Below are positions 21,195 to 36,392 of a stretch of DNA of 64,000 nucleotides, in pieces. Both the position numbers and the translations under genes were made by a program. A model generated the notes under the pieces. The model saw only the letters and a program-made list of their open reading frames with translations, made no database searches and was not told the DNA's origin. This DNA is from Candidatus Woykebacteria bacterium (GTDB taxonomy: Bacteria > Patescibacteriota > Microgenomatia > Woykebacterales > RBG-16-39-9b), in NCBI GenBank assembly GCA_040876345.1, contig JBBDPM010000001.1, positions 116,688 to 180,687 of the forward strand. The letters are read 5' to 3'. Each line of letters begins with the position of its first letter. Position 1 is the first letter of the stretch.

Positions 21195-21229
21195 AGATTT
21201 AATGTTTATCGAAACAGTGGCCAGAGAAA

Positions 21230-21255
21230 TTAAGCTCCCCAAAAGGGGAGCTTAA
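21230..21255 (-). terminator. Intrinsic terminator after the RRM-protein gene (perfect 11-bp stem, 4-nt loop)
   Basis: TTAAGCTCCCC-AAAA-GGGGAGCTTAA lies 6 nt past the stop codon. It is followed on the minus strand by UUUCUCU. Confidence 0.5.
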
Positions 21256-21261
21256 TCAAGT

Positions 21262-21567: not shown

Positions 21568-21907
21568 GTTTTCCTTTCCGGCAGATTTAACACTTCTGCC
21601 CTGCGCCTTATCTATTCTCTATCTGGGAAAACCTAAGAGGGAGAAATCTAAGGAAATTATAATGGAGATATTATAGCATAAAATCGACTGTAATTCAATT
21701 AGTATTTACTCTTCGTCTTCTTCGTCAGCTTCATCTCGGAGTTCTTGAGCATCAGCCTCCAGACGTCTTGCAGCATCTCCTAAATCATTTACCACGTACG
21801 GGCCATTCTTATTGTAGGCTTCACCTTGGCGCAGCTTTGCTGCTTCCTAATCCTTTTGTTGAGCTTCGTACAGTTCTCTTTGAATCGCCCATACGAGCCT
21901 TAGTAAT

Positions 21908-23074
21908 TTAGATAATAGAATCTTTTCTTGCAGAGCTGTAGGCGTCTTTCTTGGCTATTAACGAGGCTCCAAGACCAAATAGTAGTACTAAGAAGGTTAC
22001 TATTCCGCCAAGGATAGGTATTATTTGGACGACGTAGTATATTAGGACGCCCAAAATAAACGCCCAATAAGCATTTATTTTCCAACTTGTTTTTTCAGAA
22101 AGCAGTGTGCCTACCCAAAGCATGACAAAAATTCTCCCAATGTAAAGACTCATAAAATATATTGGTAAAATAATCAAAGCAAGCGGTATTCCTACCAAAG
22201 TAGCGGCCAGGATCAGGGCTATTATTGGAGTAGCTATCAGGGCAATAAAGCCAAGGCCAAGGGAGGGCCAGGGTTTGTTTTTAATATTATCAGCAGCGTT
22301 CTGAGAGAGGCTTGGGAAAAGTCGAATAATTAAAAGACCAAGTATCAAGGTTGATATAAAGCTAACAATTTTAAAGAACAATATTACACCAGTAGCGACA
22401 CCAAAGATTTCGTTGGGGGTGGGGGGTTTCTGGGTTGGAGTTTTTTTCGCAACCTCTCCGGCAACTTTTGCAGCAGAGTCGATTGATGCATCGTTGTCGC
22501 TCCAATAAGTAAGGTTTCCACCGACAGAAGCTTTAGAGGTAAGCCTTAAAGAGCCAACGGCTGCATCCACATTTCCTTTGATAGGGGACGAGATTGTTAA
22601 ACTACCAGTCCCCACTCTAATGTCTTTTCCCACTGGAGAGGCAATGTTTAAATTGCCGGCCCCGGCTAGGACACTCCCGCCAATTTTTGCAGAGTCGGTT
22701 ATGTCAACACTTCCACCGCCGATGCTTAAATTCTTGCCGATATCTCCGGTGATTGTTACTTGCCCACCGGCCACACGCGCATCTTGAGTAACTTTTCCGG
22801 AAATGTTTAGAGTACCACCCGCCGCCAAAAGATCTCCATTAATGGTTCCGTCAACAATTACGTTTCCGCCAGCTGCATAAACGTCGCCATTGACAGTGCC
22901 GGAAATCTCTACTCTTTCGCCAAAGGCAAAAAAGTCTCGATTTATCGTCTCGCCCTGTTTAAGAGTCACAACCTCATCGTTGCGAAAGTTCTCGGAAGAT
23001 TCTTGAGCAAAAACCGGAAAGGCAACAGCAAGAAGGAATAAGAGAGAGGTAAAAATAATGAAAAATCTTTTCAT
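21908..23074 (-). CDS. Secreted beta-helix-repeat (bactofilin-like) domain fused to a C-terminal multi-TM domain
   Basis: Signal peptide, then about 8 repeats of ..G(D/N)V..AGG.V.(I/V).G.I.G.. (polymer-forming cytoskeletal-type repeat), then 5-6 TM helices. Confidence 0.5.
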   Translation of the reverse strand: MKRFFIIFTSLLFLLAVAFPVFAQESSENFRNDEVVTLKQGETINRDFFAFGERVEISGTVNGDVYAAGGNVIVDGTINGDLLAAGGTLNISGKVTQDARVAGGQVTITGDIGKNLSIGGGSVDITDSAKIGGSVLAGAGNLNIASPVGKDIRVGTGSLTISSPIKGNVDAAVGSLRLTSKASVGGNLTYWSDNDASIDSAAKVAGEVAKKTPTQKPPTPNEIFGVATGVILFFKIVSFISTLILGLLIIRLFPSLSQNAADNIKNKPWPSLGLGFIALIATPIIALILAATLVGIPLALIILPIYFMSLYIGRIFVMLWVGTLLSEKTSWKINAYWAFILGVLIYYVVQIIPILGGIVTFLVLLFGLGASLIAKKDAYSSARKDSII

Positions 23075-23119
23075 GTGGGGATATTTTAAATCCCGTTTGT
23101 TAATCTGTCAACTAGTAAG

Positions 23120-23797
23120 CTAGCTTGAATCCAACTTATTGGCGTTTGTGCGGTAAGTGCAGTAGATACAACTATCGGAACTTTTGGGAATCGGGCCAGA
23201 AAGAATTTTCTTTGCTTCCTTTATTTTGCTTTCAACCCAGGAAGCGTCTCCCTCATAGGGCTGCACTTTAATGTTAAAATCAAGCTTTCCGTCTGCAAAG
23301 CCGTTGTCTTTGTTTACCCTGGCATAAACAAAGTACGCTCTATCTAGTACTTTGAATTTGTTTTTGCGAAGGAGCCACTGGTAAATTTCGACTTGGCGTT
23401 TGTAGCTTTCGTAAAGCTCGCCTTCCTTGGCTCCAGATGCTTTATAGTCAACCACGATCAAGTTGCCTTTTGAATCTACCCAGATATCATCTACCGCTCC
23501 AAAAACTAGGAAACCGTTTTCGTGGTCTTCATATTGGATGCCCGTGAAAGTATTCCTCCATTTATCTATATCATCATGAAGATAGGGAATAGCCTCTATT
23601 CCTTCACGCTCGATCAAGTAGTGGGCTGTTCCACCTTTTCTATGATCGTCAAATTCTTTCTTAAGAAGAAAATCAATTGCGTTGTTGATTGTGTATGGTG
23701 CACCGAAAGGCCGGGAAATATTCTTTCCGGCGTAGAGCCAAAAACATTTTGGACACTCGATTAATAACTCAAGTTTGCTCCGAGAGAGTTTTATCAT
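23120..23797 (-). CDS. Cas4/RecB-like PD-(D/E)xK nuclease (DUF83-type), solitary
   Basis: Motif II GAVDDIWV, motif III VVDYKAS, QxxxY (QVEIYQWLL). N-terminal CPKC plus C-terminal CIYC give 4 Cys for an Fe-S or Zn site. Confidence 0.6.
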   Translation of the reverse strand: MIKLSRSKLELLIECPKCFWLYAGKNISRPFGAPYTINNAIDFLLKKEFDDHRKGGTAHYLIEREGIEAIPYLHDDIDKWRNTFTGIQYEDHENGFLVFGAVDDIWVDSKGNLIVVDYKASGAKEGELYESYKRQVEIYQWLLRKNKFKVLDRAYFVYARVNKDNGFADGKLDFNIKVQPYEGDASWVESKIKEAKKILSGPIPKSSDSCIYCTYRTNANKLDSS

Positions 23798-23842
23798 AGA
23801 GCGAATTCTAACGTTTGTTATCCTGGGGTGTCAACGAGGTGA

Positions 23843-24100
23843 TTAATCAACCGAACGGTGTATTATTGAAGAGGCTAGTGTTTGGTAAGGAAGACCTTCT
23901 CTTGCAGCTTTGGATTTTAGCTTCAGCAGATCCTTTTGAGAAAGCCTAATATTTATATTTTTAGTTTTGGCTAAGGTAGTCTGAGCGTATTTTCTAAAAT
24001 TGCTCCTGACATTTTGGATATCACCAATGCTAATTAGCTTTTCCTCTTCAAAATCCTTTAATATTTTTCCTTCTTCTTTATCAAGTTCAAAATATTTCAT
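23843..24100 (-). CDS. brnA: BrnA-type antitoxin
   Basis: NINIRLSQKDLLKLKSKAAREGLPYQTLASSIIH matches the BrnA C-terminal signature. It lies immediately downstream of brnT. Confidence 0.6.
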   Translation of the reverse strand: MKYFELDKEEGKILKDFEEEKLISIGDIQNVRSNFRKYAQTTLAKTKNINIRLSQKDLLKLKSKAAREGLPYQTLASSIIHRSVD

Positions 24101-24104
24101 AATT

Positions 24105-24383
24105 TTATTTCCTGTTGATTATATACTTTTTAGTTGCTTTCCTGCTCGGAATAATAGTCTTCAAAAAAACTTTTTCCATATCTTCTACGAATGGGACTAA
24201 GTACGCGTAGTTTTCAATATTAACAACAAACAATTTTTGATTGGGATGACTTTTAGGGTTTGGGTGCTCCATTATATCTAAGATTGCCCCTTCAGAAATT
24301 GCCAGCACCACTTCTTCAAAAGAAATATCGCGTTGTCCCTTTAACTCTTGGTTTTTCTTCTCATCCCAATCGAGATGTTTCAC
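24105..24383 (-). CDS. brnT: BrnT-type ribonuclease toxin
   Basis: LDWDEKKNQELKGQRDISFEEV and the C-terminal IIPSRKATKKY match BrnT (COG2929) motifs. Confidence 0.6.
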   Translation of the reverse strand: MKHLDWDEKKNQELKGQRDISFEEVVLAISEGAILDIMEHPNPKSHPNQKLFVVNIENYAYLVPFVEDMEKVFLKTIIPSRKATKKYIINRK

Positions 24384-24745
24384 TTATGTATTCTATGACA
24401 AAAGATATTATATGTCAATAATGACAAGCGGTTAAGGAGATACAATCTGACACCTTGCGTATTTGAGTTTAAGGTGTACACTTATAAGGTGATACCAAAT
24501 ATAAGAGAATTCATCTCCTATCACAATGAGCATATCTTAGACATAGAATTAACCGCAAATTTTGAAACAATCTCGGCTTTTGCCTCCAAGAAAAATATTG
24601 CTCTTACTGACCTGTCTATAGAAAAACATCGTCTCCCCTTCATCAACTGGATCACCAGCCTTGCGAGTTCAAAAATCTAATCTTAAGTCTTAAGGAAATT
24701 TGAAGGATAGAATTACCGTTTAGGTTTAATATGATCCCGGAGGTG

Positions 24746-25156
24746 TCAAGGAAAAGGATTAAAAACTTTGATTGGAAATTTTTGAAAGTCCTTAACGTTG
24801 TCAGTAGCAATAGTATCAATATCATTGGTTAAAGCAGCCGCGTCTAGGTAGGCGTCAAAAATTCTGTTGCCGCCTAGAGAGTGTTTTTTTATCAACTCCA
24901 ATCCTATAAAGATTGTTCTAATATTTGGACTAATTATCCGTCCAATCTCTGCAATTTTCAAAACTGATTCTACTGCCTGTTCTGGTTCCATTGGGCTTGG
25001 AAATTTAGAATGAGTCAATATTCTGATAGATTCAAGTATGTTTTGATGGGTGATTTCCAAATTCTCTTTGTTCTCTTTTAAAAATTTTTGGGATAAGGTG
25101 TATTTAGGAGAGTCCGCATTAATTGCGTAAATCAAAATGTTGCTATCAATGAGCAT
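24746..25156 (-). CDS. vapC: PIN-domain toxin VapC
   Basis: MLIDSNILIYA (Asp5), the FDAYL and TDN acidic residues of the PIN fold. Its start overlaps the antitoxin. Confidence 0.75.
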   Translation of the reverse strand: MLIDSNILIYAINADSPKYTLSQKFLKENKENLEITHQNILESIRILTHSKFPSPMEPEQAVESVLKIAEIGRIISPNIRTIFIGLELIKKHSLGGNRIFDAYLDAAALTNDIDTIATDNVKDFQKFPIKVFNPFP

Positions 25157-25388
25157 TTGGGTTGGGGTTTGGGTAGAAATCGTCGCGAGTCAAATTATCC
25201 AGAGGCACACCAAGATTATGAGTTTTGAACACAATTTCCTTGGCTTTTTTCTTTTCAGATTTGAGTAGATATTCTTCCAAAGCTGTATTAACCACTTTCT
25301 GCAAGCTTATATCTTCTTCGAAGGCTTTTCTCTCAGCGGTTTTTTTTAGATCTTCTTTTATTCGCAGCGTGGTTCTTACAAATGCCAT
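25146..25388 (-). CDS. vapB: VapB-type antitoxin (RHH/CopG-like)
   Basis: 80 aa with an N-terminal TTLRIKEDLKK..AE ribbon-helix-helix-like segment. Directly upstream of vapC and overlapping it. Confidence 0.5.
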   Translation of the reverse strand: MAFVRTTLRIKEDLKKTAERKAFEEDISLQKVVNTALEEYLLKSEKKKAKEIVFKTHNLGVPLDNLTRDDFYPNPNPNAH

Positions 25389-25428
25389 AGAGTAATTTTG
25401 TCATATATATGACAATATGTCAAGGAAA

Positions 25429-27228
25429 TTAGTATTTGGAATTGAGATCAATCTTGCGGATGCGAATGTTTTTGGGAGTTACTTCTACCAATTCACGATC
25501 GTCAATATATTCAAGAGCTTCTTCCAGATCCATTGGTTTGGGAGCATTAAAGTGCTCGGCCACACCTTCACCCCGGCTCCTCATATTGGTTTGCTGTTTT
25601 TCTTTACAGACATTAACTTTGATGTCATCCTCCCGAGAGTTTTGGCCGATCACTTGACCTTTGTAAACCTTTATTCCCGGTCCGACAAAGAGCGTTCCGC
25701 GATCTTGGGCATTAGTTAAACCGTAGAGAGTTGTTGGACCATCTTCAAAGGCAACTAAGGAACCACGGGAGCGTTCAAAGCTGTTGCCAGTAGTTTCTCT
25801 AAATTCATGGAACATTGTATTGATGATACCGGTTCCCTTAGTGTCAGTAATAAATTCACTGCGATAACCAAACAGCTTCCGAGTTGGAATGATAAATTCA
25901 ACCAAAACAACCGCCTTTTCCGTGGTCATATCTTGCAAGACGGCCCCGCGCTCTCCCATTTTTTGCATTACCACCCCGGAATATTCTTCTGGAACTTCAA
26001 TAAAAACTTTTTCGTATGGCTCGAGTAACCTACCCTCAGTTTTTTTGGTAATCACTTGTGGTCGAGCCACTTGAAATTCGTAGTCTTCACGACGCAGCCT
26101 CTCAATTAATATTGCCAAGTGCAGCTCGCCTCGTCCGGAAACGATCCAATCTCCCTTTTCACCGTCAACAACTTTGAGAGCCATATCCGTCTCCAGTTCT
26201 TTAAAAAGACGCTCCCGGATTTGACGAGAAGTTTTGAACTGCCCTTCCTTTCCAGCAAAAGGTGAAGAATTGACTGAGAAAGTCATGTTTATTGTGGGCT
26301 CTTCAACGTCAAGTAGTGGTAGGGCGAGTGCTTCGTTGGGACCCGCTATTGTTTCGCCGATATTTACATCGGCTATTCCGGCTATAGCAACAATATCGCC
26401 GGCCTCTGCTTCTTGAATTTCGATTTTATCAAGGCCAGAGAAGCCAATCAGAAAGGTGAGTCGAAACTTTTTCATTTCCCCTAGACGATTGATCTGGGTA
26501 ACCTCTTGTCCAGTCTTAACCTGCCCGTTGTAGATTCGACAAGTAGCAATCCTGCCTTTGAAGTTGTCCCCGACAATGGTGGTTACGAGCATTTGAAGAG
26601 GTTTACTAGGGTCTCCAGCTGGAGCCGGAATATGCTCTAAAATAGCTTCAAAAACCGGTTCGATGTCTTTCATTTTGGAAATATCGCTTTCGGTGCCAGC
26701 CAAACCATTCTTGGCAGATGTATAGACAATTGGAAAAAACGCTGCGTCTTCGTCGGCACCCAGTTCCACAAAAAGATCAAAGGTCTTATTGAGAACATAA
26801 TCGATTCGAGCGTCAGAGCGATCGATCTTGTTGATCACCACAATCACTTTGTGCCCAAGCTCTAGAGCTCTTTTCAAGACAAAGCGGGTTTGGGGCATGG
26901 GGCCTTCCTTGGCATCAACCAAAAGCAGGCAACCGTCGGCCATTTTGAGAACCCGCTCAACTTCACCGCCAAAATCGGCGTGACCTGGTGTATCAATAAT
27001 GTTGATTTTAGTACCCTTCCACTCAACACTCGCATTTTTGGAAAAGATAGTGATGCCGCGCTCTTTTTCCAAATCGTTCGAGTCCATTATTAGGTTTGAT
27101 CCTTGCAGATCCTTATGGATTTTGGTATTACTTTGGCGCAGAAGAGCATCGACAAGTGTAGTCTTGCCATGATCCACGTGGGCGATGATTGCGACGTTCC
27201 GAAGTTTATTCATAAATATTTTTGACAC
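25429..27228 (-). CDS. typA: Translational GTPase TypA/BipA
   Basis: G1 [22 protein letters not shown]. 599 aa with EF-G-like domains. Confidence 0.9.
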
Positions 27229-27324
27229 AAGAGCAGCAACTCGGCAAGAATAAAAATATTCTTTTTTAGTTTTGGAAATTGTTGCCCGAAACTAATGCAG
27301 GCTAATTATAACACACTATGGGTT

Positions 27325-28314
27325 CTATGTGAACTTCAAATCAATAAAATAAACTTCTCCGCCAGTTTGCTCGTTGAAGTTCCCATAATAGAGACGGAAA
27401 TTTCCGTTTGGTAGGAAAATTCCATCAGCGTCAGCGCCGTTAATTCCTAAGGGACCAAGTTTAGTCCATTTTAGGCCGTCGGTTGACTGTGCAGCGTAAA
27501 TTTTGGAATGAGTATTGTAAAACATCAGGAAATTTCCATCTGGTTTTGTCACTACAAATGGGTGCAGAGCCTGAGGCCAATCTGCAGGAGCGTTTTCCAC
27601 ACCGTCTTCCGGTTCAATTGTTGGGGAGCGGTCGCGAGTCCAGGCTAGACCATCAGTAGAAGTTGCTCCCCAAATGACGCCTTTTCTTTTCATCGGATCG
27701 GCTGATTCTGGTTCTTCAAAATACATGCGCAACTTTCCGTTCTTCATTTTGAACACACTAGAGCCGCCAATAAAGTTGCCTTTTCGTGGAGTAATTCTTT
27801 TTCCAGAGTCTTTAGTAAAGGTCATTCCATCCTTTGAAAACGCGCTCAATAGTGAAGGCATCGGGCCACTCTCTCCTATCAAAGGCATCTGCTCTGGGTA
27901 ATAGAAACGGATACCCGTGTCTGTCTGGAAGGCCCGCGCGACTGAGATACCCGGGAAGATGATACCTGTCTTTTCAGTCCAGTTTTCAGCATCGGTGGAG
28001 GAAAGCACTAAGTAGCCACTTGGGCCCTTACCAAATTTGTTCAAATACATCAGGTAAGTACCATCGGCTTTTTTGATGATCGAAGGGTCAGCGTAGCCGC
28101 CGGTGAAAACTTTTTTAGCTTCGGTCACTTTAGTGATGGTAGTTTTCTCCGCCGGTTTAGCACTTTGAGTAGCGGTTTCTGTTGGTGCCTCAGCTGTCGG
28201 TTTTTGGTTATTGAGGAAAAAGTAACCAACAACCCCGACGCCAAGCAAAAGAATTACGATAGTCAGAATTATCAGCAAAGTCTTGGGGTTTTTCTTGGGC
28301 GGCTCTTCCGGCAT
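27325..28314 (-). CDS. Membrane-anchored beta-propeller glycoside-hydrolase-like protein (GH43/GH32 clan-like)
   Basis: N-terminal TM helix, then GGYADPSIIKKADGTYLMY (the ADPS motif typical of five-bladed propeller glycosidases) and repeated DG..W blades. Confidence 0.4.
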   Translation of the reverse strand: MPEEPPKKNPKTLLIILTIVILLLGVGVVGYFFLNNQKPTAEAPTETATQSAKPAEKTTITKVTEAKKVFTGGYADPSIIKKADGTYLMYLNKFGKGPSGYLVLSSTDAENWTEKTGIIFPGISVARAFQTDTGIRFYYPEQMPLIGESGPMPSLLSAFSKDGMTFTKDSGKRITPRKGNFIGGSSVFKMKNGKLRMYFEEPESADPMKRKGVIWGATSTDGLAWTRDRSPTIEPEDGVENAPADWPQALHPFVVTKPDGNFLMFYNTHSKIYAAQSTDGLKWTKLGPLGINGADADGIFLPNGNFRLYYGNFNEQTGGEVYFIDLKFT

Positions 28315-28363
28315 TGATACTATTATATAGAGGTTTTTCCGATTTTATAAGCCTGTTCTGTTA

Positions 28364-28828
28364 TCAGTTGCTGCCTAGATCCAGCAAAACCTCATCTGCG
28401 TGGATAGCTGGTTTAACCTTCTCGTAAATTTTCTCTATCTTGCCAGTCTTGTCAATCAAAAATGAGGTGCGCACTACTCCCAAAAATTCTTTCCCCAGGA
28501 ATTTCCTGGGTCGATAGACATCGTAGGCCCTGGCGACTTCTTTGTTTACGTCGGCAAGTATGGTGAAAGGAAGGCCATGTTTTTGGGCAAACTTTTTGTG
28601 GCTTTCAATGCTGTCAGTGCTAATTCCCAAAACTATCGCCTTAGCACTTCCAAATTTTGGAAAGCTATCGCGGATTTGGCAGGCTTCGACCGTACAACCA
28701 GCGGTGAAATCCCTTGGGTAAAAATAAATCAGGACTTTTTTGCCAAGGTAATCAGAAAGCTTGTGATTTTTGCCGTTTTGGTCCGCTAATTCAAAATCTG
28801 GGGCTTTGTCTCCAACTGCAAGTGGCAT
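28364..28828 (-). CDS. bcp: Peroxiredoxin Bcp (thiol peroxidase)
   Basis: FYPRDFTAGCTVEAC peroxidatic Cys motif. 154 aa. Confidence 0.85.
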   Translation of the reverse strand: MPLAVGDKAPDFELADQNGKNHKLSDYLGKKVLIYFYPRDFTAGCTVEACQIRDSFPKFGSAKAIVLGISTDSIESHKKFAQKHGLPFTILADVNKEVARAYDVYRPRKFLGKEFLGVVRTSFLIDKTGKIEKIYEKVKPAIHADEVLLDLGSN

Positions 28829-28838
28829 GGTGATTTAG

Positions 28839-29210
28839 TTAATAACCAGCAGCATCGGCTTCGGCTTTGGTTTTGTGGATTGTTCCGGGTGGGTGATGGG
28901 GTGGTGAGTAGGCAGTTACTACTTTTAGATCGCCCTGTCCGGTATTAATGAAATTATGCTTGGTCCCAGCGTTTACCAAAAAAACATCGTCTTTGCTTAT
29001 TGGCTTTTCCTCCCCATTCAATATTGCTTTGCCGCTTCCTTCGACAAAATAGAGGACTTGATCGTTGTCATTGTGGGTTTCTTCACCGATTTCGCCGCCA
29101 GCCGGCATACTCATAACGACTATTTGGGTATGTACACCGGTCTCCAATACTTGACGGAAATAAGTGTTTTCCCGGGCTTTGTCAGAAATATCGTGAATAT
29201 AGCCTTTCAT
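28839..29210 (-). CDS. Cupin-domain protein
   Basis: Cupin motifs G(X)5HxH-like (PAGGEIGEETHNDNDQVLYFVEGSG) and a second conserved motif (GTKHNFIN). Confidence 0.6.
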   Translation of the reverse strand: MKGYIHDISDKARENTYFRQVLETGVHTQIVVMSMPAGGEIGEETHNDNDQVLYFVEGSGKAILNGEEKPISKDDVFLVNAGTKHNFINTGQGDLKVVTAYSPPHHPPGTIHKTKAEADAAGY

Positions 29211-29283
29211 AGTCTCTCCATAATACCACTTTTGTCCATGTACAAATCAGAGTAATTTCGCTTGAAGTGCCTAGAAAAGTTTT

Positions 29284-29427
29284 TTTACTCTTCTTTACGT
29301 TCGGGGGAGGATTTACTAAAGCTGCGGTGACACATCTGGCATTTATATGCGGTAGCGGAAGTGCTGTCTCTAGATATTTTTGATAAATCTCTACTATTGC
29401 AGTAAGGACATTTTACATCATCGGCCA
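29284..29427 (-). CDS. Small zinc-ribbon protein (47 aa). It falls below the ORF-track cutoff
   Basis: Translated by hand: MADDVKCPYCNSRDLSKISRDSTSATAYKCQMCHRSFSKSSPERKEE (CxxC..CxxC). It has its own promoter (see next feature). Confidence 0.35.
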
Positions 29428-29547
29428 TATTACTTTTTTCTTTTCTGAAGCTTTAGTGAAGAAATGCAAAAAGTTATTTCTTTTTATTCTTTTTTGGTTT
29501 TTTAACTTCTCTTTTTTGTTTACCTTGAGAATGGGCCATAGAATGTA

Positions 29548-29576
29548 ATTATACGGTCTCTAGCACTAAAAGACAA
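29548..29576 (-). promoter_or_regulatory. Sigma70-like promoter (TTGTCT-N17-TATAAT) for the small zinc-ribbon gene
   Basis: On the minus strand, a -35 TTGTCT (plus 29571-29576) and a perfect -10 TATAAT (plus 29548-29553) are separated by 17 nt. This sits just downstream of the LigD-PE stop. Confidence 0.35.
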
Positions 29577-29579
29577 GAA

Positions 29580-30206
29580 TTAGGTTTGTTTGGGGGAATT
29601 TGATATATCCGCTAGGCTCTTGTTTGTTTTTGCGGAAAAATCCAAGTCTTTGGCGTCAAAGCCCTCTTGTGCATATTTATCTTTATGCTTGATCAAAAGC
29701 CAAGCATTTTTACCTGCAAAGCCTTTGGTTTTCACCAAGGCAAAGGAGCCTTTTAATTTTTTGCCGTTTAGAAAAAATTTTAACTCTCCTTTTTCCAAAC
29801 CCGTCTTTAAAACTTTTTCCGCTTCTTTTTTGGTTTTTACTTGCACTCTTTCTCCATCCTCTTCAATTTCCGGCCAATAGGTGCCAAAGTCCCAAATTAT
29901 TACAGTTCCAGCACCATATTGCCCCTCGGGTATCACTCCTTCAAAATGTCGATAGTCCAGGGGGTGATTCTCGGTTTGCATTGCTAGTCGCTTCACCGAT
30001 GGGTCTAATGTTGGCCCTTTGGGAACAGCCCACGAGGGCATGGCTCCACCTGCTTCCAGCCGGAAATCGTAATGGAGTGCTGTGGCTTGGTGTTTCTGGA
30101 CTACATAGACTAGTTTTTTGGGGTCAATATTTTCGGATGTAAAAGGCTCAGGAGTGATATTTGGGTCTCTTTTTTCGCGGTAGGTAGAAAGCGAATCATT
30201 TAGCAT
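29580..30206 (-). CDS. Standalone LigD 3'-phosphoesterase (PE) domain protein
   Basis: VVQKHQATALHYDFRLE..SWAVPKGPTLDPSVKRLAMQTENHPLDY..FEGVIPEGQYGAGTVIIWD matches the LigD-PE core almost motif-for-motif. Confidence 0.8.
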   Translation of the reverse strand: MLNDSLSTYREKRDPNITPEPFTSENIDPKKLVYVVQKHQATALHYDFRLEAGGAMPSWAVPKGPTLDPSVKRLAMQTENHPLDYRHFEGVIPEGQYGAGTVIIWDFGTYWPEIEEDGERVQVKTKKEAEKVLKTGLEKGELKFFLNGKKLKGSFALVKTKGFAGKNAWLLIKHKDKYAQEGFDAKDLDFSAKTNKSLADISNSPKQT

Positions 30207-30289
30207 TTCCCTGGAATTTTACTGTTTGACCAGAAAAGGTGTCAAGGGAATAATTTATATCGCTCTGGCGATACGAGAGTAGATGTAAT

Positions 30290-30559
30290 CTAGCGATTAT
30301 AAATTGCGTGGGTTCCTATATTGTCAAAAACAACCACGCTGCCTTCTTCAAAGTGAAAAACTATCCTCCATTGGTATGAAACGGAAAATGAGTAAAAATC
30401 GGCCAGTTTGCCCTTCAACTTGTGAGTTTTTAACCTTGGATCGAAAACGTCCTCCTTGAATATTTGTTCTTGCTTCTTGAGAGATTTGAGTTCTGAGCTG
30501 GGAAATCTTTTCAAACTTTTGAAAAAGGCAGATGAATATTTAATCTGCTTGGGCTTCAT
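30290..30559 (-). CDS. RelE/ParE-family toxin
   Basis: LKTHKLKGKLADFYSFSVSYQWRIVFHFEEGSVVVFDNIGTHAIY fits the RelE/ParE fold signature. It overlaps the upstream antitoxin. Confidence 0.65.
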   Translation of the reverse strand: MKPKQIKYSSAFFKSLKRFPSSELKSLKKQEQIFKEDVFDPRLKTHKLKGKLADFYSFSVSYQWRIVFHFEEGSVVVFDNIGTHAIYNR

Positions 30560-30797
30560 TCCAAAGTTCCTCTAACGAGCCTTTTAACACTTTTGCCTTG
30601 CCCTCTCTTGCTTCCTCACGGCTTTGTAATACAGATAAAACCGCTTCCATCTCTGCAAGTTCCGTAGCATCGATTATTGCAACCTGGGGCTTGTTATTCT
30701 TCATTACAAATATGGGCTCCTTGGTTTTCTTCGCCTGATCGAAGATTTTTTTGTAATTACGCTGTATTTCTCTGGCAGTAGTAGTTTTTGGAAACAT
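30540..30797 (-). CDS. Phd/YefM-family antitoxin
   Basis: The N-terminus T..EIQRNYKKIFDQAKKTKEPIFVMKNNKPQVAIID is typical of Phd/YefM. 85 aa. Confidence 0.65.
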   Translation of the reverse strand: MFPKTTTAREIQRNYKKIFDQAKKTKEPIFVMKNNKPQVAIIDATELAEMEAVLSVLQSREEAREGKAKVLKGSLEELWNEAQAD

Positions 30798-30806
30798 ATT
30801 ATGTAT

Positions 30807-30835
30807 ATAATACCGTATGTAATATTATATGTCAA
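30807..30835 (-). promoter_or_regulatory. Sigma70-like promoter (TTGACA-N17-TATTAT) immediately upstream of the yefM-like ATG, embedded in an AT-rich imperfect palindrome
   Basis: On the minus strand, the -35 TTGACA is at plus 30830-30835 and the -10 TATTAT at plus 30807-30812. The ATG at 30797 is about 10 nt downstream of the -10, implying a leaderless or near-leaderless transcript. The palindrome is a plausible autoregulatory operator. Confidence 0.4.
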
Positions 30836-30940
30836 TAAAGTTTGGGCGTTTTAAGCTTGTTCCTATCATAAATTGAGACTAAGAAGCGAGGGTAAAATTG
30901 GGTTCTCTCCTTTCCGCCAAAAGGTGACCCATATCCCTCT

Positions 30941-31258
30941 TCAGCCTGATACGTACTCCTTTGCTAGTTTCTTAACCTCCGCCATCACCTCCTTGTCTGT
31001 GATACGAAACGGATGTTTGTGAATCTCGCACCAGCCGTTTGGGCCGTAATTGTGCTCCGGATGGTGTTTCGCAAGCGGGTTTCCGTATGCCTCGAATCCG
31101 AGATCGGTTACGAGGCCGACTGCGAAATCCTGAAACACAAATGCCCCCTCATCCAAGGGAGAATCGCACGCTATCTCCAGGTGAAGGTAGAGCTCGCCGT
31201 CTTTACTGTAGAACCAGATATGCCTAATCTGGTTCTGCTCATCCTTTGCTGTCGCCAC
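30941..31258 (-). CDS. Hypothetical protein in a GC-enriched patch
   Basis: GTG start preceded by GGAGAGAGGAGG. 105 aa, about 50% GC against about 40% background. No recognised motif. Confidence 0.4.
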   Translation of the reverse strand: MATAKDEQNQIRHIWFYSKDGELYLHLEIACDSPLDEGAFVFQDFAVGLVTDLGFEAYGNPLAKHHPEHNYGPNGWCEIHKHPFRITDKEVMAEVKKLAKEYVSG

Positions 31259-31345
31259 GGGAAGCCTCCTCTCTCCAATTTGTTGATTGCTACAAGGCTG
31301 TGCTGGGAAGAGATCTTATCATATTTGAAGCTAAAAAGCGAGGTT

Positions 31346-31819
31346 TTATCTTTCCAAATTGAAATAACCGATTGTGAAGGGGAGACCGGGAATGATACGC
31401 AGATGGATTTTACCTAAATAAACTCCAGGTTCGGTTTCTACTATCTCATCCAGAAGAGTTCGCAGCCAAATGGGGTTTCCAGAAACATTGTAGTTTAATT
31501 TTAAAACTCCTATATTTTTATCTTGTAAACCTTTTCCCTCGGAAGTTTTAAATTTGTAGCGCTCTGAATCTTCTATTTTGTTAACCCCGCTGTTTTCCGC
31601 AGCATTAAAAATTTTCCCTTTCCAAGAAAGACTGTCCCGACCGTTAACAGAACCTTTGTAAAATCCGTCTAGTTTTGGAGAGGGAAGTTTTCCGGAAAGG
31701 AATATTTTTTGGTTATCACTGTGCTGAATTTTCCAAGTTCGGTAAAGGGCGAACAGAATAGATAGAATGACTATTATTAGAATAATGATTGGGATTAACT
31801 TAAAAAACTTAAATGTCAT
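31346..31819 (-). CDS. Hypothetical membrane-anchored protein
   Basis: 157 aa with an N-terminal TM helix (LIPIIILIIVILSILFALY). Confidence 0.4.
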   Translation of the reverse strand: MTFKFFKLIPIIILIIVILSILFALYRTWKIQHSDNQKIFLSGKLPSPKLDGFYKGSVNGRDSLSWKGKIFNAAENSGVNKIEDSERYKFKTSEGKGLQDKNIGVLKLNYNVSGNPIWLRTLLDEIVETEPGVYLGKIHLRIIPGLPFTIGYFNLER

Positions 31820-31959
31820 TGGATTTGTCTTGGCTCCTTAAAATTCTAAAGAATACTGTGACTATTTCATAGACTACAAATACTAATCTGAAAAGCGAGA
31901 GTGGGAGAGGGCAGGCTGGCAGCTCTGTGATCCCTCTACCAGTTGGTTTTCGCGTGAAT

Positions 31960-32709
31960 CTAGGCCTCGGTTGCCATGAGTGCCATGAGTATTTCTATGG
32001 CGGCCCGAGGTGGATTGAGGATGAGCCAGTCGTGACCAGTATCCTTGATGATCCGAGGCTCTACCCCAAGGGCTTCACAGATTGGCTCCCATGGGAAGTA
32101 CTCGTCGTTCTCTGCCCAGAGTACGGCAACTTCCGTTTGGAGGTTGGGTAGCACCTCAAGTAGGTTGCAGCGAACAGTCATCTGGAAAGTTCGCAGCATC
32201 CAAGTTGGGTGCTTGAGGTGGTTAGCCAGGAACGAAAGCACCACTTTCGCCGCTTGCCGCCGCTGACCCTTCCGGAAACTTCGCCAAGTTTTCTGGCGCC
32301 CCACGTTTAGCCAACCAAAGGTGGAACGCCGCACTCGACCGCCAGCGGTATCAACCAGGACAAGCTTGGCTACCCTTTCCGGGTAGTGCCTTGCAACTTC
32401 GGCTGCTACGGAACCACCCATGGAGTGACCAACAAGGCGGACTTTCGTAGCTCCGAGATGGTCGATTATTCCCACCACAATCTCGGCGAAGCGCCCAAGG
32501 TCAGCCAAGACCAAGGCGTCACTTTTTCCGTGGCCTGGTTGGTCTGGGATGATGACAAAGAAGGAGTTCGAAAGCAGCTCACCCACCAACTCAAATAGAG
32601 ACGCTTGGGCCGACCAGCCGTGGATGATCATTGCCGCTGGGTTTGTTGGGTCTCCTGCCGTCAGATAAGAGACCAAGCAGCCGTCGACGGAGACTTGACT
32701 CCTTTGCAT
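31960..32709 (-). CDS. Alpha/beta hydrolase in a GC-rich (about 57%) patch, probably horizontally acquired
   Basis: HGW oxyanion motif, GHSMGG nucleophile elbow, strong SD (AGGAGAGG) before the ATG. The 3' flank has a hairpin AGAGGG..CCCTCT. Confidence 0.75.
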   Translation of the reverse strand: MQRSQVSVDGCLVSYLTAGDPTNPAAMIIHGWSAQASLFELVGELLSNSFFVIIPDQPGHGKSDALVLADLGRFAEIVVGIIDHLGATKVRLVGHSMGGSVAAEVARHYPERVAKLVLVDTAGGRVRRSTFGWLNVGRQKTWRSFRKGQRRQAAKVVLSFLANHLKHPTWMLRTFQMTVRCNLLEVLPNLQTEVAVLWAENDEYFPWEPICEALGVEPRIIKDTGHDWLILNPPRAAIEILMALMATEA

Positions 32710-32799
32710 GACCTCTCCTATGCGAAGTTATCTCTCTGCCCGAGTATTCAGTTGTCAGGGGAATTATACCTTAGCTTGTAAAATAAGTAGAGGAAGAGC

Positions 32800-33201
32800 C
32801 TAAAGGGAAGGGTTTTTAGGCAGGTATTTAAGGGCAAATTGGTGGGCTTGGGCCTCTTGAATAGTTGTTTCTCTTTTAGTTTGCGGAGCAAGAATGGCGT
32901 TTTTGTGACCGAGCATCACGTGCCCAATTTCGTGGGCAACAGTGTAGTGTTGATCGTATTTATCCTGCTCAAAAAGCTCATCTCCCAGGAAAACTAGGTG
33001 TTTATTCCCAAGATCTTTACTATCCAACACAAAACCCCAAGCGTCATCAAAAGAAGATATGAACCAGACATTTGCGGAAATAAAGTTGATTATTTCTTTT
33101 GGGAAAAGGAGAAGTGTTTCGCAAACAAGAAGCTGCATCTTTGCGTTACCAACAAGCTTACCACTAAATCTCTTTTTTATCTTTTCAAGCTCTGGGCCCA
33201 T
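32800..33201 (-). CDS. Putative zinc metallopeptidase (HExxH, ImmA/IrrE- or DUF955-like)
   Basis: HEIGHVMLGH motif in a 133-aa protein. There is no adjacent HTH partner. Confidence 0.45.
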   Translation of the reverse strand: MGPELEKIKKRFSGKLVGNAKMQLLVCETLLLFPKEIINFISANVWFISSFDDAWGFVLDSKDLGNKHLVFLGDELFEQDKYDQHYTVAHEIGHVMLGHKNAILAPQTKRETTIQEAQAHQFALKYLPKNPSL

Positions 33202-33212
33202 TCAGATATGGT

Positions 33213-33551
33213 TTATATTGCAAAGATTATCAAAATCAACACCAAAATTATCAAAAATGAATATAGCAAGGTGTAGGAGAGGGTTGCAAGAGCCTCTTTT
33301 ATCTTGTTGTTTAGGGCTAAATATACTGGTAGTCCAAATACTAAGGAGCCGGTGATCGCGGCTGAGAAAACGAACAGCACCAGAATTAGGAAAACGCCAA
33401 TATATCCGGGCTCCATATTGCCTTTCTCGATGAAGAACATAAAAGCGCCAACCAAGGCGCAGTAGGCGGTTAATCCTAAAGCTTGACCAAGCCCCGCCAG
33501 AGCTGGATGCACCTCACCTTTTAAGAGTTTATCCATGTTTAAATTATACAA
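33213..33551 (-). CDS. Hypothetical membrane protein
   Basis: 112 aa with 3 TM helices. Confidence 0.4.
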   Translation of the reverse strand: MYNLNMDKLLKGEVHPALAGLGQALGLTAYCALVGAFMFFIEKGNMEPGYIGVFLILVLFVFSAAITGSLVFGLPVYLALNNKIKEALATLSYTLLYSFLIILVLILIIFAI

Positions 33552-33559
33552 GATTTTTG

Positions 33560-34282
33560 TTATTTTATTACAGACTTAAGATAATATTGTCTTTTTCCTT
33601 CAGGAAAATGTTCGATAGAGTAACGAAGGGCAGTGCGGGGCATGGTGGCGGCGTGTTTATCAAGAAAATTGGTCAAGTCCTTTTCACTGCAGCGTTTGCC
33701 AACTTCCCGCAGCATCCAACCAACTGCTTTTTGGATTAGATCATGCTTGTCGTCAATCAAAATCTCGGCTATCTTCAACGCATCTTTAGGGTCACCTTGG
33801 GCAATAAAATAAGAAGTCGCTACCATGGCAATTCTTCTTTCCCACAGGTTTTTAGACTTTGCCAGCTTGTATAAAATGTCTTTTGACCTGTTCTCTAGGT
33901 ACGGGCCGACAATATAACCAGCTGATGAATCAACCAAATCCCAGTTATTCACCCAGCCAGTATTTGCTAAATAAAATTCGTAAATTTCTTTCTGGATTTT
34001 GCTGTCGTTTTGTTTAACAGCTGCCTTGAATTGATTCACAAGGATTATCAACGCCACTAAGCGCTCTTCGTGAATTGGGGATTTGAAGAGTTGTTCGGCT
34101 TTGGTTAGCGGCAAATCTTTGTATTTTTTCGCGATCAATCGCTGCTCCGGCACGGTAACGCCGATAAATTTATCACCCTCGCCGTATTGCCCCTTATCTG
34201 TTTTAAAAAACCACTCTGACGCTTTTGCTTTTTGAGGGGTGGCTAATTCTTGAAGGTCTTTTTTTAACTGTTCGATCATCAC
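33560..34282 (-). CDS. AlkD-like DNA alkylation repair glycosylase (HEAT-like repeats)
   Basis: Pattern ..WNLWERRIAMVATSYF.. and ..KAVGWMLREVGK.. typical of the DNA_alkylation (AlkC/AlkD) family. 240 aa. Confidence 0.75.
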   Translation of the reverse strand: MMIEQLKKDLQELATPQKAKASEWFFKTDKGQYGEGDKFIGVTVPEQRLIAKKYKDLPLTKAEQLFKSPIHEERLVALIILVNQFKAAVKQNDSKIQKEIYEFYLANTGWVNNWDLVDSSAGYIVGPYLENRSKDILYKLAKSKNLWERRIAMVATSYFIAQGDPKDALKIAEILIDDKHDLIQKAVGWMLREVGKRCSEKDLTNFLDKHAATMPRTALRYSIEHFPEGKRQYYLKSVIK

Positions 34283-34353
34283 CCAGGTATTTTATATGAT
34301 TTTTTTGGGATCGTGAAGTGGTCTGAGTTGGATAGCGTCCTTGTCTACCCAAC

Positions 34354-34638
34354 TCAGCGGTACGGGTGTCGGCGGCAATAGTCGCAGAGCAGGCGGCTCG
34401 TTCTCCAGATCAAAAACCAGCTGCTGTGATTGCACGGTAGTTGGCTGCCGTACTCGGTATTCTTGCGCCCGCTTCCATAGCAGGGTGTGCATGTTTTGAC
34501 GCCCGTGGTCTTACCGCACTGCCCACATCTCGTCACTGGCCGTATCCGACCCCAGCGTACGATGGGCAAGAGGAGCAAGACCCCAACGAGTATCAGTACC
34601 GACAATTCGAGTGGCATCTCGATTGCGATTATTGGCAT
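34354..34638 (-). CDS. Small TM protein with CxxC pairs, in a GC-rich (about 57%) patch
   Basis: Strong SD GGAAGGAGG 6 nt before the ATG. TM helix, then CGQCGKTTG..CTPCYGSG (the second matches the DnaJ-type CxxCxGxG motif). The C-terminal third of the ORF may be read-through. Confidence 0.4.
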   Translation of the reverse strand: MPIIAIEMPLELSVLILVGVLLLLPIVRWGRIRPVTRCGQCGKTTGVKTCTPCYGSGRKNTEYGSQLPCNHSSWFLIWRTSRLLCDYCRRHPYR

Positions 34639-34695
34639 TTCCGACCTCCTTCCGACTATATTTTATAAAACCTGTAGTAAAATTATGGAGTTTAG

Positions 34696-35496
34696 TTAGA
34701 TTTTAAGGTCTCTTTTTTGGAAAGAGACGATGCTGATTAGGAGAAATACCAAGGTTACAGCAATAAACACGGCCATATGTTCCAACTTTAAGCCATTCTT
34801 CAGTGGGTTATTTTCACTGTAATAGTAGGAAAGCGAAAATTTTTGATAATCTTTGAGAAAATTTACTATTGGGGAGAGGCCATATAGAAAAAAGCTAATG
34901 ACTGCTAAAGAAGCGCTTATCCCGATACCTATCGAACGGCTTCCAGTGGCAGCACTTAAAGCTAAAGAAATTGATCCAAAAGCAAGGGCAAGTAGAGACA
35001 CACTAATCATAACATCGACTATCCGCATTGGGTTAACGTCCATGCCGATTGATTGGGTTCCGATTATTAAAGAAATTGCTGTAATAGATGACAATATTGC
35101 CGTAGTTAAAATCATTAAAATAAATTTTTCGACAACTACCTGAAAGCGAGGAATAGGATTGGCCAAAAGAAGGTCCAGAGTGCCTTTATCTTCCTCACCA
35201 GCGATTGCTCCGCTGCCGGCGGCCACAGTGAAAATTATCAAGAGGGTTGGCATAAAGAAAGTAAAAAGTTCGCTGTTCAAGTATCCGGCCGGGGTGGCGT
35301 AATCAGTCGCCTCTCCAACAAATGCTCTAAGCGCTTCTGGCAAGTTCTCAAAATATGAGGTTATATTCTGAGCGCTCTCTTTAACACTAGGGTAAAAAGC
35401 GATAAGAAGAGAAACAGTAAGAATTAGTCCAATACTCCAGAACAACAAGGATATCTTTTGGTCTTTTAGATTTCTGAATATTATATTGCCAATCAT
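34696..35496 (-). CDS. ABC-2 family transporter permease
   Basis: 266 aa with 6 TM helices. Overlaps the ATPase gene by 4 nt. Confidence 0.65.
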   Translation of the reverse strand: MIGNIIFRNLKDQKISLLFWSIGLILTVSLLIAFYPSVKESAQNITSYFENLPEALRAFVGEATDYATPAGYLNSELFTFFMPTLLIIFTVAAGSGAIAGEEDKGTLDLLLANPIPRFQVVVEKFILMILTTAILSSITAISLIIGTQSIGMDVNPMRIVDVMISVSLLALAFGSISLALSAATGSRSIGIGISASLAVISFFLYGLSPIVNFLKDYQKFSLSYYYSENNPLKNGLKLEHMAVFIAVTLVFLLISIVSFQKRDLKI

Positions 35497-36392
35497 GACT
35501 TTTCTTTATCCACGTAGTAGGTGAGAAATAGCTCCTCTAAGTTTGGTTCTTGACTTATAATATTTACCACTTCATATTTCGCGATTTCCTTTACAAAAGA
35601 ATCCAGAGTTCCGACAACGGTGCAACGCAGTAGATTGCCCTCTACCCTTACGTCTTGTACACCTTCAATTTTTGAAAACTCTTCTAGTTTTGGAGCTTTA
35701 GAAAAATGAACTTCCAGGGGACGGAGGGCTTTTTCTCTTAGAGTCTCAACCCTTTCAACAATTGCAAGCTCCCCTTCGCGAATTATACCCACCCGGTCAC
35801 AAATTTTTTCTACTTCGGGGAGATTATGCGATGAGATAAAAAAAGTAGTGCCCATCCCTTTAGTCTCACTGACTAAATGGTAAAACTCGTGCTGAATAAG
35901 GGGATCGAGACCAGAGGTTGGCTCGTCTAAAATTACAAGCTTTGGTTTGTGCATGAAAGCTTGAATAAGGCCGATTTTTTGCTTGTTGCCGTGGGACATT
36001 TTTTTAATTTTCTGGTGAAGATCTACTTTCAGGCGGCTGCGTAGTTTTTCAACGTATTTCCAATCTACGCCATCTCTAAATTTTGCTAAAAACTTCAAAA
36101 TTTCTGTGCCAGTTAGGTTTTCGTACAAGCTAAGGTCTCCTGGCAAGTAGCCAACAAGCCTTTTTATTTCAACGCTATTTTTGTGAGAATCTAGACCAAA
36201 GATTTCAGTCTGACCTTGGCTTGGCCTCATAAAGTCTAGAAGAACTCGGATAGTAGTTGTTTTACCGGCACCGTTAGGGCCAAGGTAACCAAAAACTTCT
36301 CCTTGAATCACACTGAAGTTTAGGTCAACGACACCTCTTTGTTTTCCGTAGGATTTTGTGAGGCCCTTTACTTTGATCGCGTCATCTGCCAT
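35493..36392 (-). CDS. ABC transporter ATP-binding protein
   Basis: Walker A GPNGAGKTT, a signature-like motif (SHGNKQK), Walker B LVILDEPTSGLD, and an H-loop. Confidence 0.85.
   Translation of the reverse strand: MADDAIKVKGLTKSYGKQRGVVDLNFSVIQGEVFGYLGPNGAGKTTTIRVLLDFMRPSQGQTEIFGLDSHKNSVEIKRLVGYLPGDLSLYENLTGTEILKFLAKFRDGVDWKYVEKLRSRLKVDLHQKIKKMSHGNKQKIGLIQAFMHKPKLVILDEPTSGLDPLIQHEFYHLVSETKGMGTTFFISSHNLPEVEKICDRVGIIREGELAIVERVETLREKALRPLEVHFSKAPKLEEFSKIEGVQDVRVEGNLLRCTVVGTLDSFVKEIAKYEVVNIISQEPNLEELFLTYYVDKEKS

Follow-up and report, generated by a model that had tools for sequence, protein, structure and literature searches.

Gene content of the typA neighbourhood

We analysed a 64 kb stretch of DNA from an uncultured, ultra-small bacterium, Candidatus Woykebacteria (the window), and focused on the 11.5 kb around the housekeeping gene typA (23.1-34.7 kb), where toxin-antitoxin (TA) pairs, DNA-processing enzymes and GC-rich patches lie close together (Table 1). 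All genes from 20979 to 36392 were on the minus strand, except for small68, a plus-strand gene that was missed at first. The rest of the window carries type IV pilus genes, a two-component system, aminoacyl-tRNA synthetases, pentose-phosphate and glycolysis enzymes, and ribonucleotide reductase. Six contig records (from NCBI and Logan assemblies) share the arrangement, and a Logan contig was 100% identical to the window over 20.7 kb. An earlier note on this DNA had described the dense TA, DNA-processing and GC-rich content, with typA, bcp and an ABC exporter interspersed. Profile searches supported nearly every one of these calls, and the Pfam matches agreed on the interspersed genes.

Table 1. 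Features around typA, with window positions. For the motif copies in relatives, the positions are those of each locus. Bit scores are followed by the cutoff where there is one (GA, Pfam gathering threshold); SD, Shine-Dalgarno sequence; ORF, open reading frame.
Feature	Position	Strand	Remarks
Cas4-like PD-(D/E)XK nuclease	23120-23797	-	PF12705 PDDEXK_1 49 bits (GA 22); PF01930 Cas_Cas4 24 bits (GA 22.7)
BrnA antitoxin (putative)	23843-24100	-	PF12441 CopG_antitoxin 24.4 bits, below GA 28, E 5e-5
BrnT toxin (putative)	24105-24383	-	PF04365 29.6 bits, below GA 34.5, E 9e-7
small68, 63 aa, no known family	24489-24680	+	Codon-periodic conservation in alignment; backbone beside variable slots
VapC (PIN)	24746-25156	-	PF01850 40.5 bits (GA 23.6)
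VapB, ribbon-helix-helix (RHH)/Arc-like, 80 aa	25146-25388	-	PHROGs Arc-like repressor, E 8e-8
typA/bipA translational GTPase	25429-27228	-	Pfam GTP_EFTU, BipA_C; housekeeping; comparison anchor
GH43/BNR-like membrane-anchored protein	27325-28314	-	62% homologue in L001, the only relative sharing it
Bcp peroxiredoxin	28364-28828	-	Profile search; backbone
Cupin	28839-29210	-	Profile search; backbone
Zinc ribbon, 47 aa	29285-29428	-	Homologue at L001 8102-8248
Lys-rich peptide, 21 aa	29474-29539	-	In the 369-nt spacer between ligD-PE and cupin
Stand-alone LigD 3'-phosphoesterase (LigD-PE), 208 aa	29580-30206	-	PF13298 LigD_N 138.7 bits; TIGR02777 190.9 (cutoff 144)
RelE/YafQ-like toxin	30290-30559	-	PF15738 YafQ/HigB/RelE 32.8 bits (GA 30)
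Phd/YefM antitoxin	30540-30797	-	PF02604 PhdYeFM 37.7 bits (GA 29.8)
GC1 insert	30870-31343	-	Motif copy b, SD GGAGAGAGGAGG, 105-aa orphan ORF (30941-31258), hairpin (30888-30939), motif copy c
Motif copy c	30870-30891	-	After GC1, 94 nt before phd
Motif copy b	31322-31343	-	After hyp157, 85 nt before GC1
hyp157, membrane-anchored	31346-31819	-	Native composition; 74% homologue in L004
Motif copy a	31878-31900	-	After GC2, 81 nt before hyp157
GC2 insert	31878-32730	-	SD-led 249-aa alpha/beta hydrolase (31960-32709), hairpin (31906-31937), motif copy a
M78/ImmA-like HEIGH peptidase	32800-33201	-	PF06114 22.3 bits (GA 22); residues 79-124 only
Membrane protein, 112 aa	33213-33551	-	Homologues near typA in L007, L084, L088, L091
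AlkD-like glycosylase	33560-34282	-	PF08713 DNA_alkylation 218.6 bits, residues 6-226 of 240
GC3 insert	34320-34660	-	SD GGAAGGAGG, 94-aa ORF (34354-34638), 3' hairpin (34323-34357)
ABC-2 type exporter permease	34696-35496	-	Pfam
ABC-2 type exporter ATPase	35493-36392	-	Pfam
Motif copies in relatives	L004 12044, 12902, 13430, 14016; L093 2267, 3383, 3827; L084 6518; L164 122		Same orientation throughout

Backbone genes and variable slots in relatives

For comparison, we used 21 loci whose TypA is 77-90% identical to that of the window; each was oriented on typA and viewed over 10 kb to either side. The close TypA relatives (from species-representative genomes and Joint Genome Institute (JGI) metagenomes) all belong to the Candidate Phyla Radiation (CPR)/Patescibacteria, and among named taxa Daviesbacteria comes closest, at 72%. 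The loci of the relatives are labelled L001 to L145; L164 is an unrelated 573-bp metagenomic contig, L169 the window genome beyond the right end, and L081 a contig with publicly called genes.

We observed that one set of genes keeps recurring near typA. The L084 locus has the order of the window (MsrB, small68, AlkD, the 112-aa membrane protein, cupin, Bcp, TypA), and Bcp lies directly upstream of typA in four relatives (L002, L084, L086 and L089). AlkD is found near typA in L007 as well as in L084, the M78-like gene precedes typA in L004, L005 and L088, and the Cas4-like gene is close to typA in L004 (78% identical), L145 (81%) and L093 (46%). Both hyp157 and Phd-RelE are present in L004. Near typA the relatives also keep a Tag glycosylase, a MazG-like gene and DUF2196, which the window lacks. 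VapBC, BrnT/BrnA, LigD-PE, the ABC pair, GC1 and GC2, on the other hand, lacked a counterpart in the 10 kb on either side of typA in all 21 relatives (for the ABC pair, the only matches were to its ATPase, at 34-35%, in L004 and L089).

Near-empty sites were seen as well. In L145, whose TypA is 90% identical, the typA stop is followed by TTTCCTTGACAC, and the Cas4-like gene starts 30 nt on. The window has the same TTTCCTTGACA after typA, where it serves as the vapB promoter; its Cas4-like gene lies about 1.6 kb further, behind another TTGACAC, with VapBC, small68 and BrnT/BrnA in between. In L004, small68 begins 6 nt past the typA stop. Neither of these two loci therefore has VapBC at this site, where typA is followed by small68 in L004 and by the Cas4-like gene in L145.

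These comparisons indicated that the TA pairs, LigD-PE, the ABC pair and the GC-rich ORFs are truly variable. Judged from their sequences, the Cas4-like gene, AlkD, the M78-like peptidase, hyp157, cupin and Bcp can be assigned to the backbone, because they recur near typA and have a native composition, and because the Cas4-like gene and AlkD have native leaderless promoters. We conclude, with a probability of about 0.7, that the genes around typA form a variable neighbourhood of the chromosome and not a mobile element.

A single mobile element (a genomic island, a prophage remnant or an integrative plasmid) spanning 23.1-34.7 kb would explain why TA modules and genes of odd composition lie so close together, within 11.5 kb. 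However, neither an integrase nor a transposase was present in the ~84 kb that were scanned (the window plus 10 kb past each end). The tRNA/tmRNA scan of the window returned 0 genes, tandem repeats and long flanking or att-like direct repeats were absent from the window, and the stretch contains no phage structural genes. The core genes typA and bcp are interleaved with the cargo, the composition is mostly native, and the relatives share the backbone piecemeal. A single element is thus very improbable.

The view in the earlier note of a plastic region rather than a single element, with no integrase or clear boundaries, therefore stands: gene content around typA differs among the 21 relatives, two of which have near-empty sites, and the gene order is not fully conserved, the same slots holding different cargo. 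Its description of the content as mobile and defence-related cargo was not supported for the repair genes. The TA pairs and GC-rich ORFs are variable, whereas the Cas4-like gene, AlkD and the M78-like gene appear to be native backbone, and PADLOC found no complete defence system.

Toxin-antitoxin pairs

The vapB and vapC genes overlap by 11 nt, with the antitoxin gene first, in one operon. VapC has the acidic residues of PIN proteins (D4, E42 and later Asp residues were seen in the sequence); its match to NCBIfam TIGR00028 (49.6 bits) was under the cutoff of 73.6. VapB had no Pfam match. A perfect palindrome, TTGTCATATATATGACAA (25398-25415), lies inside the vapB promoter and is a putative VapB operator. 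The co-oriented phd and relE genes overlap by 20 nt and follow a leaderless promoter, TTGACA-N17-TATTAT. Both passed their NCBIfam cutoffs (TIGR01552 phd, 23.4 vs 20.8; RelE_StbE TIGR02385, 30.1 vs 27.9). In L004 the pair (Phd 79%, RelE 49% identical) is at another position.

In the third pair the toxin gene leads, as in the BrnT/BrnA family, with a 4-nt gap to brnA, and brnT has its own leaderless promoter (TTGACA-N17-TAGAAT). NCBIfam and PADLOC gave no match to BrnT or BrnA, and Protein Data Bank (PDB) sequence searches with BrnT, BrnA and the Cas4-like protein returned spurious matches only. The TA calls of the earlier note were thus borne out by hidden Markov models (HMMs) for Phd-RelE and the PIN toxin, which are above the Pfam cutoffs, and more weakly for BrnT/BrnA, which are below them.

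When compared with the known type II families (VapBC, Phd/YefM-RelE of the YafQ/HigB-like kind, and BrnT/BrnA), the predicted pairs of the window have the same gene sizes, order, overlaps and domain matches. The palindromic operator in the vapB promoter is a shared trait, and partner swapping, as seen in the relatives, is likewise typical. They differ in that BrnT/BrnA falls below the Pfam thresholds and in that all three pairs are apparently leaderless transcription units. Other TA types were found near typA in relatives (MazE/AbrB-PIN in L084, AbrB-Doc in L093). At L001 5910-6559, an RHH antitoxin homologous to the window VapB (73% nucleotide identity over 108 nt) is partnered with a Doc/Fic toxin and not with a PIN toxin. 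This RHH-Doc pair reads as a case of TA partners being exchanged within the clade.

GC-rich inserts

The GC content of the window is 0.42, while the GC1, GC2 and GC3 ORFs have 0.52, 0.56 and 0.57. Their third-position GC (0.63, 0.61 and 0.70) is 4.7-6.5 standard deviations above the native mean of 0.387 (standard deviation 0.048). All three carry a GGAGG-type 5-mer SD, which was found on 7/79 window ORFs overall. The three GC-rich patches with a strong SD that the earlier note had placed at 30941-31258, 31960-32709 and 34354-34638 are hence supported by GC, third-position GC and the GGAGG sequences. No sequence is shared between the patches.

GC1 matched only itself among 5.8e9 clusters and had one homologue, P0033 (36% identical), among 1.84e9 representatives. 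Its single-sequence AlphaFold2 (AF2) model had a predicted local distance difference test (pLDDT) score of 62 and gave no Foldseek match below E 0.03. GC2 encodes an intact hydrolase (Abhydrolase_1, 82.7 bits) with a GHSMGG nucleophile motif. The protein is identical to one that NCBI lists under a Candidatus Woykebacteria bacterium metagenome-assembled genome, and its best non-self homologue was 30% identical. Searches of GC1 against a phage collection and of GC2 against a plasmid collection gave nothing, or only matches of ≤32% identity, those of GC2 being to plasmids from GC-rich taxa. In viral contigs there was no relative of GC2 or of the GC3 family.

The GC3 protein has a predicted N-terminal transmembrane helix and a putative two-zinc-site finger with the pattern CxxC-x8-CxxCxGxG-x15-CxH-x13-CxxC. 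Its homologues at L007 12126-12416 and L088 7255-7521 are ~30% identical, with C38, C41, C50, C53, C69, H71, C85 and C88 invariant. The family is GC-rich and SD-led in 3/3 genomes, and is convergent with small68 in L007 and L088. The GC3 ORF is uncalled in the public annotation (L081) and absent from the protein database. Since two GC-rich homologues keep the eight Cys/His ligands, we consider GC3 a real gene. The hairpin 3' of GC3 was significant against shuffled sequences (z -4.0), as was the hairpin after one L004 orphan ORF; those of GC1 (z -0.7) and GC2 (z -1.0) were not.

The sharp jumps in composition, and the fact that the GC3 ORF is uncalled publicly, could suggest that the patches are assembly chimeras, contaminating reads or non-genes. 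However, identical junctions are found on the six contig records, in both NCBI and Logan assemblies, and GC1 and GC3 have homologues within AT-rich CPR-type flanks in independent metagenomes. Furthermore, the GC2 hydrolase is intact, the GC3 family keeps its eight metal ligands at ~30% identity, and in the GC1 and GC3 ORFs GC is highest at the third codon position. Artefacts are extremely improbable, and the doubt in the earlier note that the patches might be chimeras found no support.

Other GC-rich, SD-led orphan ORFs without Pfam families occur in the same neighbourhoods of relatives. The proteins of GC2, GC3 and a pilus-locus ORF are rich in Gly, Ala, Arg and Pro (GARP) and poor in Phe, Tyr, Met, Ile, Asn and Lys (FYMINK), which points to a history in a GC-richer genome; the amino-acid composition of GC1 is not deviant. 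We infer from their sequences that the GC-rich ORFs are horizontal transfers from GC-richer, SD-using donors that are absent from the databases. GC-biased gene conversion at a recombination hot spot was considered and rejected, as it fails on the sharp ORF-sized boundaries, the SD leaders and the GARP-rich proteins.

A fourth GC-rich patch (~14880-15750, GC 0.52-0.58) lies between pilC (13677-14780) and pilB (15717-17405), with a plus-strand, Cys-rich orphan ORF of 199-226 aa that has no family match. Two more were seen in L169, 2-9 kb past the right end of the window: 12051-13200 (an LVIVD-repeat gene) and 18001-18700 (a 244-aa ORF without a family). Because of these further patches in L169, GC-rich inserts appear to be scattered genome-wide, and are densest in the stretch studied here.

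Two designs of expression signals

The best sigma-70-like matches in 23.0-34.8 kb were all on the coding strand, and the top six ended 6-9 nt (one ~77 nt) before start codons. TTGACA-N17-TAnnnT ends 6-9 nt before the start of phd, ligD-PE, brnT, the Cas4-like gene and DUF8173, and weaker matches precede vapB and alkD. This spacing points to leaderless mRNAs. GC1, GC2 and GC3 do not share the design and carry SD leaders. We then compared ORFs whose third-position GC is >0.15 above the median with all others, in the window and 14 relatives. SDs were enriched in the former (6/10 vs 38/313; Fisher p = 6e-4), and a start-proximal -10 box was present in 0/10 of them as compared to 106/313 of the others.

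A recurrent motif at the edges of the inserts

A ~24-nt motif, CCTCGCTTTTTAGNTTCAAA (consensus (A)ACCTCGCTTTTTAGNTTCAAATTT), occurs in three copies within 1 kb on the coding strand and nowhere else in the ~84 kb. In L004 the layout is motif, GC-rich orphan ORF, motif, reverse-strand GC-rich ORF, motif, hyp157, motif, MazG-like gene; L093, with three copies, has a similar layout. P0033, the GC1 homologue on L164, also has the motif upstream, identical in 20/20 nt and equally far away (84-85 nt), and an 18-nt 3' flank is identical as well. Overall, 7/11 copies are at a GC jump of ≥0.10, against a background of 7.6% (binomial P ~4e-6, the copies being not fully independent).

One explanation is that the region at ~30.87-32.73 kb and its L004 and L093 equivalents form an array in which the ~24-nt site separates single-gene cassettes (the GC-rich ORFs, hyp157 and possibly Phd-RelE) that would be moved by a site-specific recombinase encoded elsewhere, by analogy with integrons, clusters of attC sites lacking integrases (CALINs) or Xer-dependent dif modules. 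Besides the repeated, co-oriented copies and their position at GC jumps, the bracketing of the GC-rich inserts agrees with this (copies b and c around GC1, 452 bp apart; L004 12044/12902/13430; L093 3383/3827). For two of these inserts, which lie on the reverse strand, there is no co-oriented gene that the upstream copy could regulate. GC1 and P0033 share the motif and the 18-nt 3' flank despite 36% protein identity, hyp157 has a copy on each side both in the window and in L004, next to different neighbours, and in L004 the motif lies outside the Phd promoter.

Other observations argue against such an array. No recombinase is encoded in the ~84 kb, and neither RYYYAAC/GTTRRRY cores (by eye, in the spacers) nor dif-like arms nor a conserved dyad were seen. 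The motif stands at a fairly constant 72-94 nt upstream of starts, which is the position of an UP element or activator site for leaderless promoters, and its 5' half could correspond to a small terminator's 3' arm and U-tract (AAGCAAG-ATAAAC-CTCGCTT-TTT in L004). GC2 and GC3 have no 5' copy, only ~12 copies in five sequences are available, and viral contigs gave matches at chance level only. The motif could thus be merely a regulatory or terminator element. A DNA-uptake sequence was rejected as its identity, as it is absent from the other ~83 kb examined.

The comparison with known arrays gave a similar picture. As in integron cassette arrays, CALINs and the pdif modules of Acinetobacter, a conserved site separates TA modules and short cassettes that hold one, often orphan, gene, and the content varies between relatives while the sites persist. 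The likeness is architectural only: IntI or another recombinase is missing from the ~84 kb, and the site is ~24 nt, asymmetric, without attC cores or dif arms, and in a position that fits a promoter or terminator. We therefore consider a cassette array possible but doubtful. The related proposal, that the GC-rich orphan genes and hyp157 are mobile cassettes captured and shuffled at CCTCGCTTTTTAGNTTCAAA in Woykebacteria-like CPR, at a new type of site whose recombinase is not among the genes found, is equally tentative. If the motif were a recombination site, it would point to a mechanism of gene capture in a lineage thought to rely on DNA uptake, and would explain how orphan genes with foreign translation signals entered genomes with apparently leaderless mRNAs.

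Proposed history of the neighbourhood

In the variable neighbourhood that we favour, AlkD, the 112-aa membrane protein, the M78-like protein, hyp157, two mini-ORFs (the zinc ribbon and the Lys-rich peptide), cupin, Bcp, TypA, small68 and the Cas4-like protein would form a vertically inherited backbone for genome upkeep and housekeeping. Small self-contained modules would be gained and lost singly at intergenic promoter/terminator junctions. The inserted modules would be three type II TA pairs (BrnT/BrnA probably among them), LigD-PE, the ABC-2 exporter and three single-gene GC-rich inserts. Since the TA pairs and LigD-PE have the lineage's own leaderless promoter design, they may circulate within related CPR, and each TA pair would act as the usual autoregulated addiction module. 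Insertion would need no recombinase encoded in the stretch. Its most economical route would be uptake of DNA that then recombines at promoter boxes, through short homology or illegitimately; for the GC-rich inserts, the 24-nt motif may serve as a recombination site instead.

Several points weigh against this account. The mechanism of insertion is purely one that we infer, and the motif at GC boundaries suggests something beyond random illegitimate recombination. Gain and loss are not separable for most modules. A module called absent is absent from the typA neighbourhood and not necessarily from the genome, because ±10 kb were seen, in relatives with 77-90% TypA identity. No donor was found for any GC-rich ORF, and GC1 and GC3, whose GC-rich homologues are found only inside the clade, could be long-resident clade-specific genes and not recent imports. 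BrnT/BrnA, with its sub-threshold HMM matches, is probably a type II TA pair.

Patescibacteria are already documented to carry genomic islands and genes that were transferred one by one (PMC12455944). What that work shares with this case is that small CPR genomes hold many single transfers and islands, mostly passed between Patescibacteria, whose donors are often unsampled. The stretch described here differs in being not a uniform, IslandViewer-type island but a mosaic of backbone and slots around typA, where the only compositionally foreign parts are three inserts of 0.3-0.85 kb. Regions rich in horizontal gene transfer are thus already known in this group, and the unusual detail is the motif that borders the GC-rich inserts. 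The neighbourhood is otherwise a routine case of a flexible region in a very small, symbiont-like genome, in which addiction modules and foreign genes are gained and lost over time. It may be of use as an annotated CPR case, as a correction (the repair genes appear native and not cargo) and as a source of missed small genes.

The Cas4-like nuclease, the M78-like peptidase and the repair genes

The Cas4-like protein has four cysteines (C15, C18, C209 and C212, as CxxC...CxxC) together with D..DYK and QxxxY motifs, and its gene has a leaderless promoter. PADLOC Cas4 models matched it (E 1e-10), and the NCBIfam Cas4 equivalog TIGR00372 gave 36 bits, below the cutoff of 65. A full-length match to an uncharacterised phage family, phrog_31195 (E 1e-20), outscored every Cas4 model. 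Since cas1/cas2, other cas genes and CRISPR arrays are absent from the 64 kb, we regard the predicted nuclease as solo-Cas4-like. Solo-Cas4 genes are common in CPR, mostly vertically inherited and evolving like ordinary genes (PMC5704561). The gene described here shares with them membership of the Cas4-family PD-(D/E)XK nucleases, the four cysteines, the lack of cas1/cas2 and CRISPR, and vertical inheritance (78-81% identity in relatives). It differs in its score below the equivalog cutoff, in the CxxC...CxxC arrangement and in having a phage family as its best full-length match.

The M78-like protein is a borderline case by its Pfam score, and its matches to PADLOC models RmrA and CapP and to phrog_87 fall on the same HExxH stretch as the Pfam match. 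Its AF2 model had a pLDDT of 53 (<50 in the catalytic half) and was too poor to search with. No XRE/ImmR-type helix-turn-helix family is found among its neighbours (the membrane protein and the GC2 hydrolase). The M78-like gene, the membrane protein and AlkD are tightly packed, with gaps of 8 and 11 nt.

We also evaluated a functional anti-phage cluster to which the TA pairs, the genes for solo Cas4 and the M78 peptidase, and those next to them would all belong. Type II TA modules can act in abortive infection, and the PADLOC matches to Cas4 and M78-type models, along with the phage-family match of the Cas4-like protein, are points in favour of such a defence island. However, the check with PADLOC-DB 2.0 showed an isolated Cas4 and weak M78-type matches, with no complete system, and cas1/cas2, a CRISPR array and restriction-modification genes are lacking. 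The M78 matches are restricted to the HExxH region, and in relatives the Cas4-like and M78-like genes are conserved backbone beside housekeeping genes, in line with the mostly vertical descent of solo-Cas4 in CPR noted above. A defence island is therefore unlikely.

LigD-PE consists of the phosphoesterase domain only, and has a native composition and a leaderless promoter. Like other stand-alone LigD phosphoesterase proteins, it has a full-length domain match above the curated cutoff. In contrast to LigD systems of non-homologous end joining (NHEJ), no ligase, polymerase or Ku is fused to it or neighbours it within the ~84 kb (Ku and ligase were absent from all called genes there), so that an assignment to NHEJ is not warranted here. 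The profile matches of LigD-PE and AlkD (Table 1) leave no doubt about their families.

Searches with hyp157 in Pfam, PADLOC and PHROGs gave no match. A 23-nt near-repeat joins it (31463-31485) to an 83-aa ORF at 63707-63958 on the minus strand, which has a high third-position GC (0.57). This ORF may be a paralogue of hyp157.

Small genes missed at first

Rfam searches (at the gathering threshold on the 64 kb, and at permissive E-values on 30.7-34.8 and 24.3-24.8 kb) gave no credible family. Known RNAs were thus rejected both for the GC patches and for a conserved element at 24.45-24.68 kb; the latter is a protein gene. This gene, small68, has 12 homologues (60-78% identical) in 11 relatives, with an invariant DLSIEKHR(L/M)PFINW, and no Pfam or PHROGs match. 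It usually adjoins typA and variable cargo, being between vapC and brnT in the window, and L004 has two copies that flank typA. The public annotation (called genes of L081) lacks it. The gene calls of the earlier note had also missed it, as well as the two small ORFs at 29285-29539. Each of these two ORFs has its own promoter-like box, and the spacer that holds them is conserved at the nucleotide level in L001, L002 and L004.

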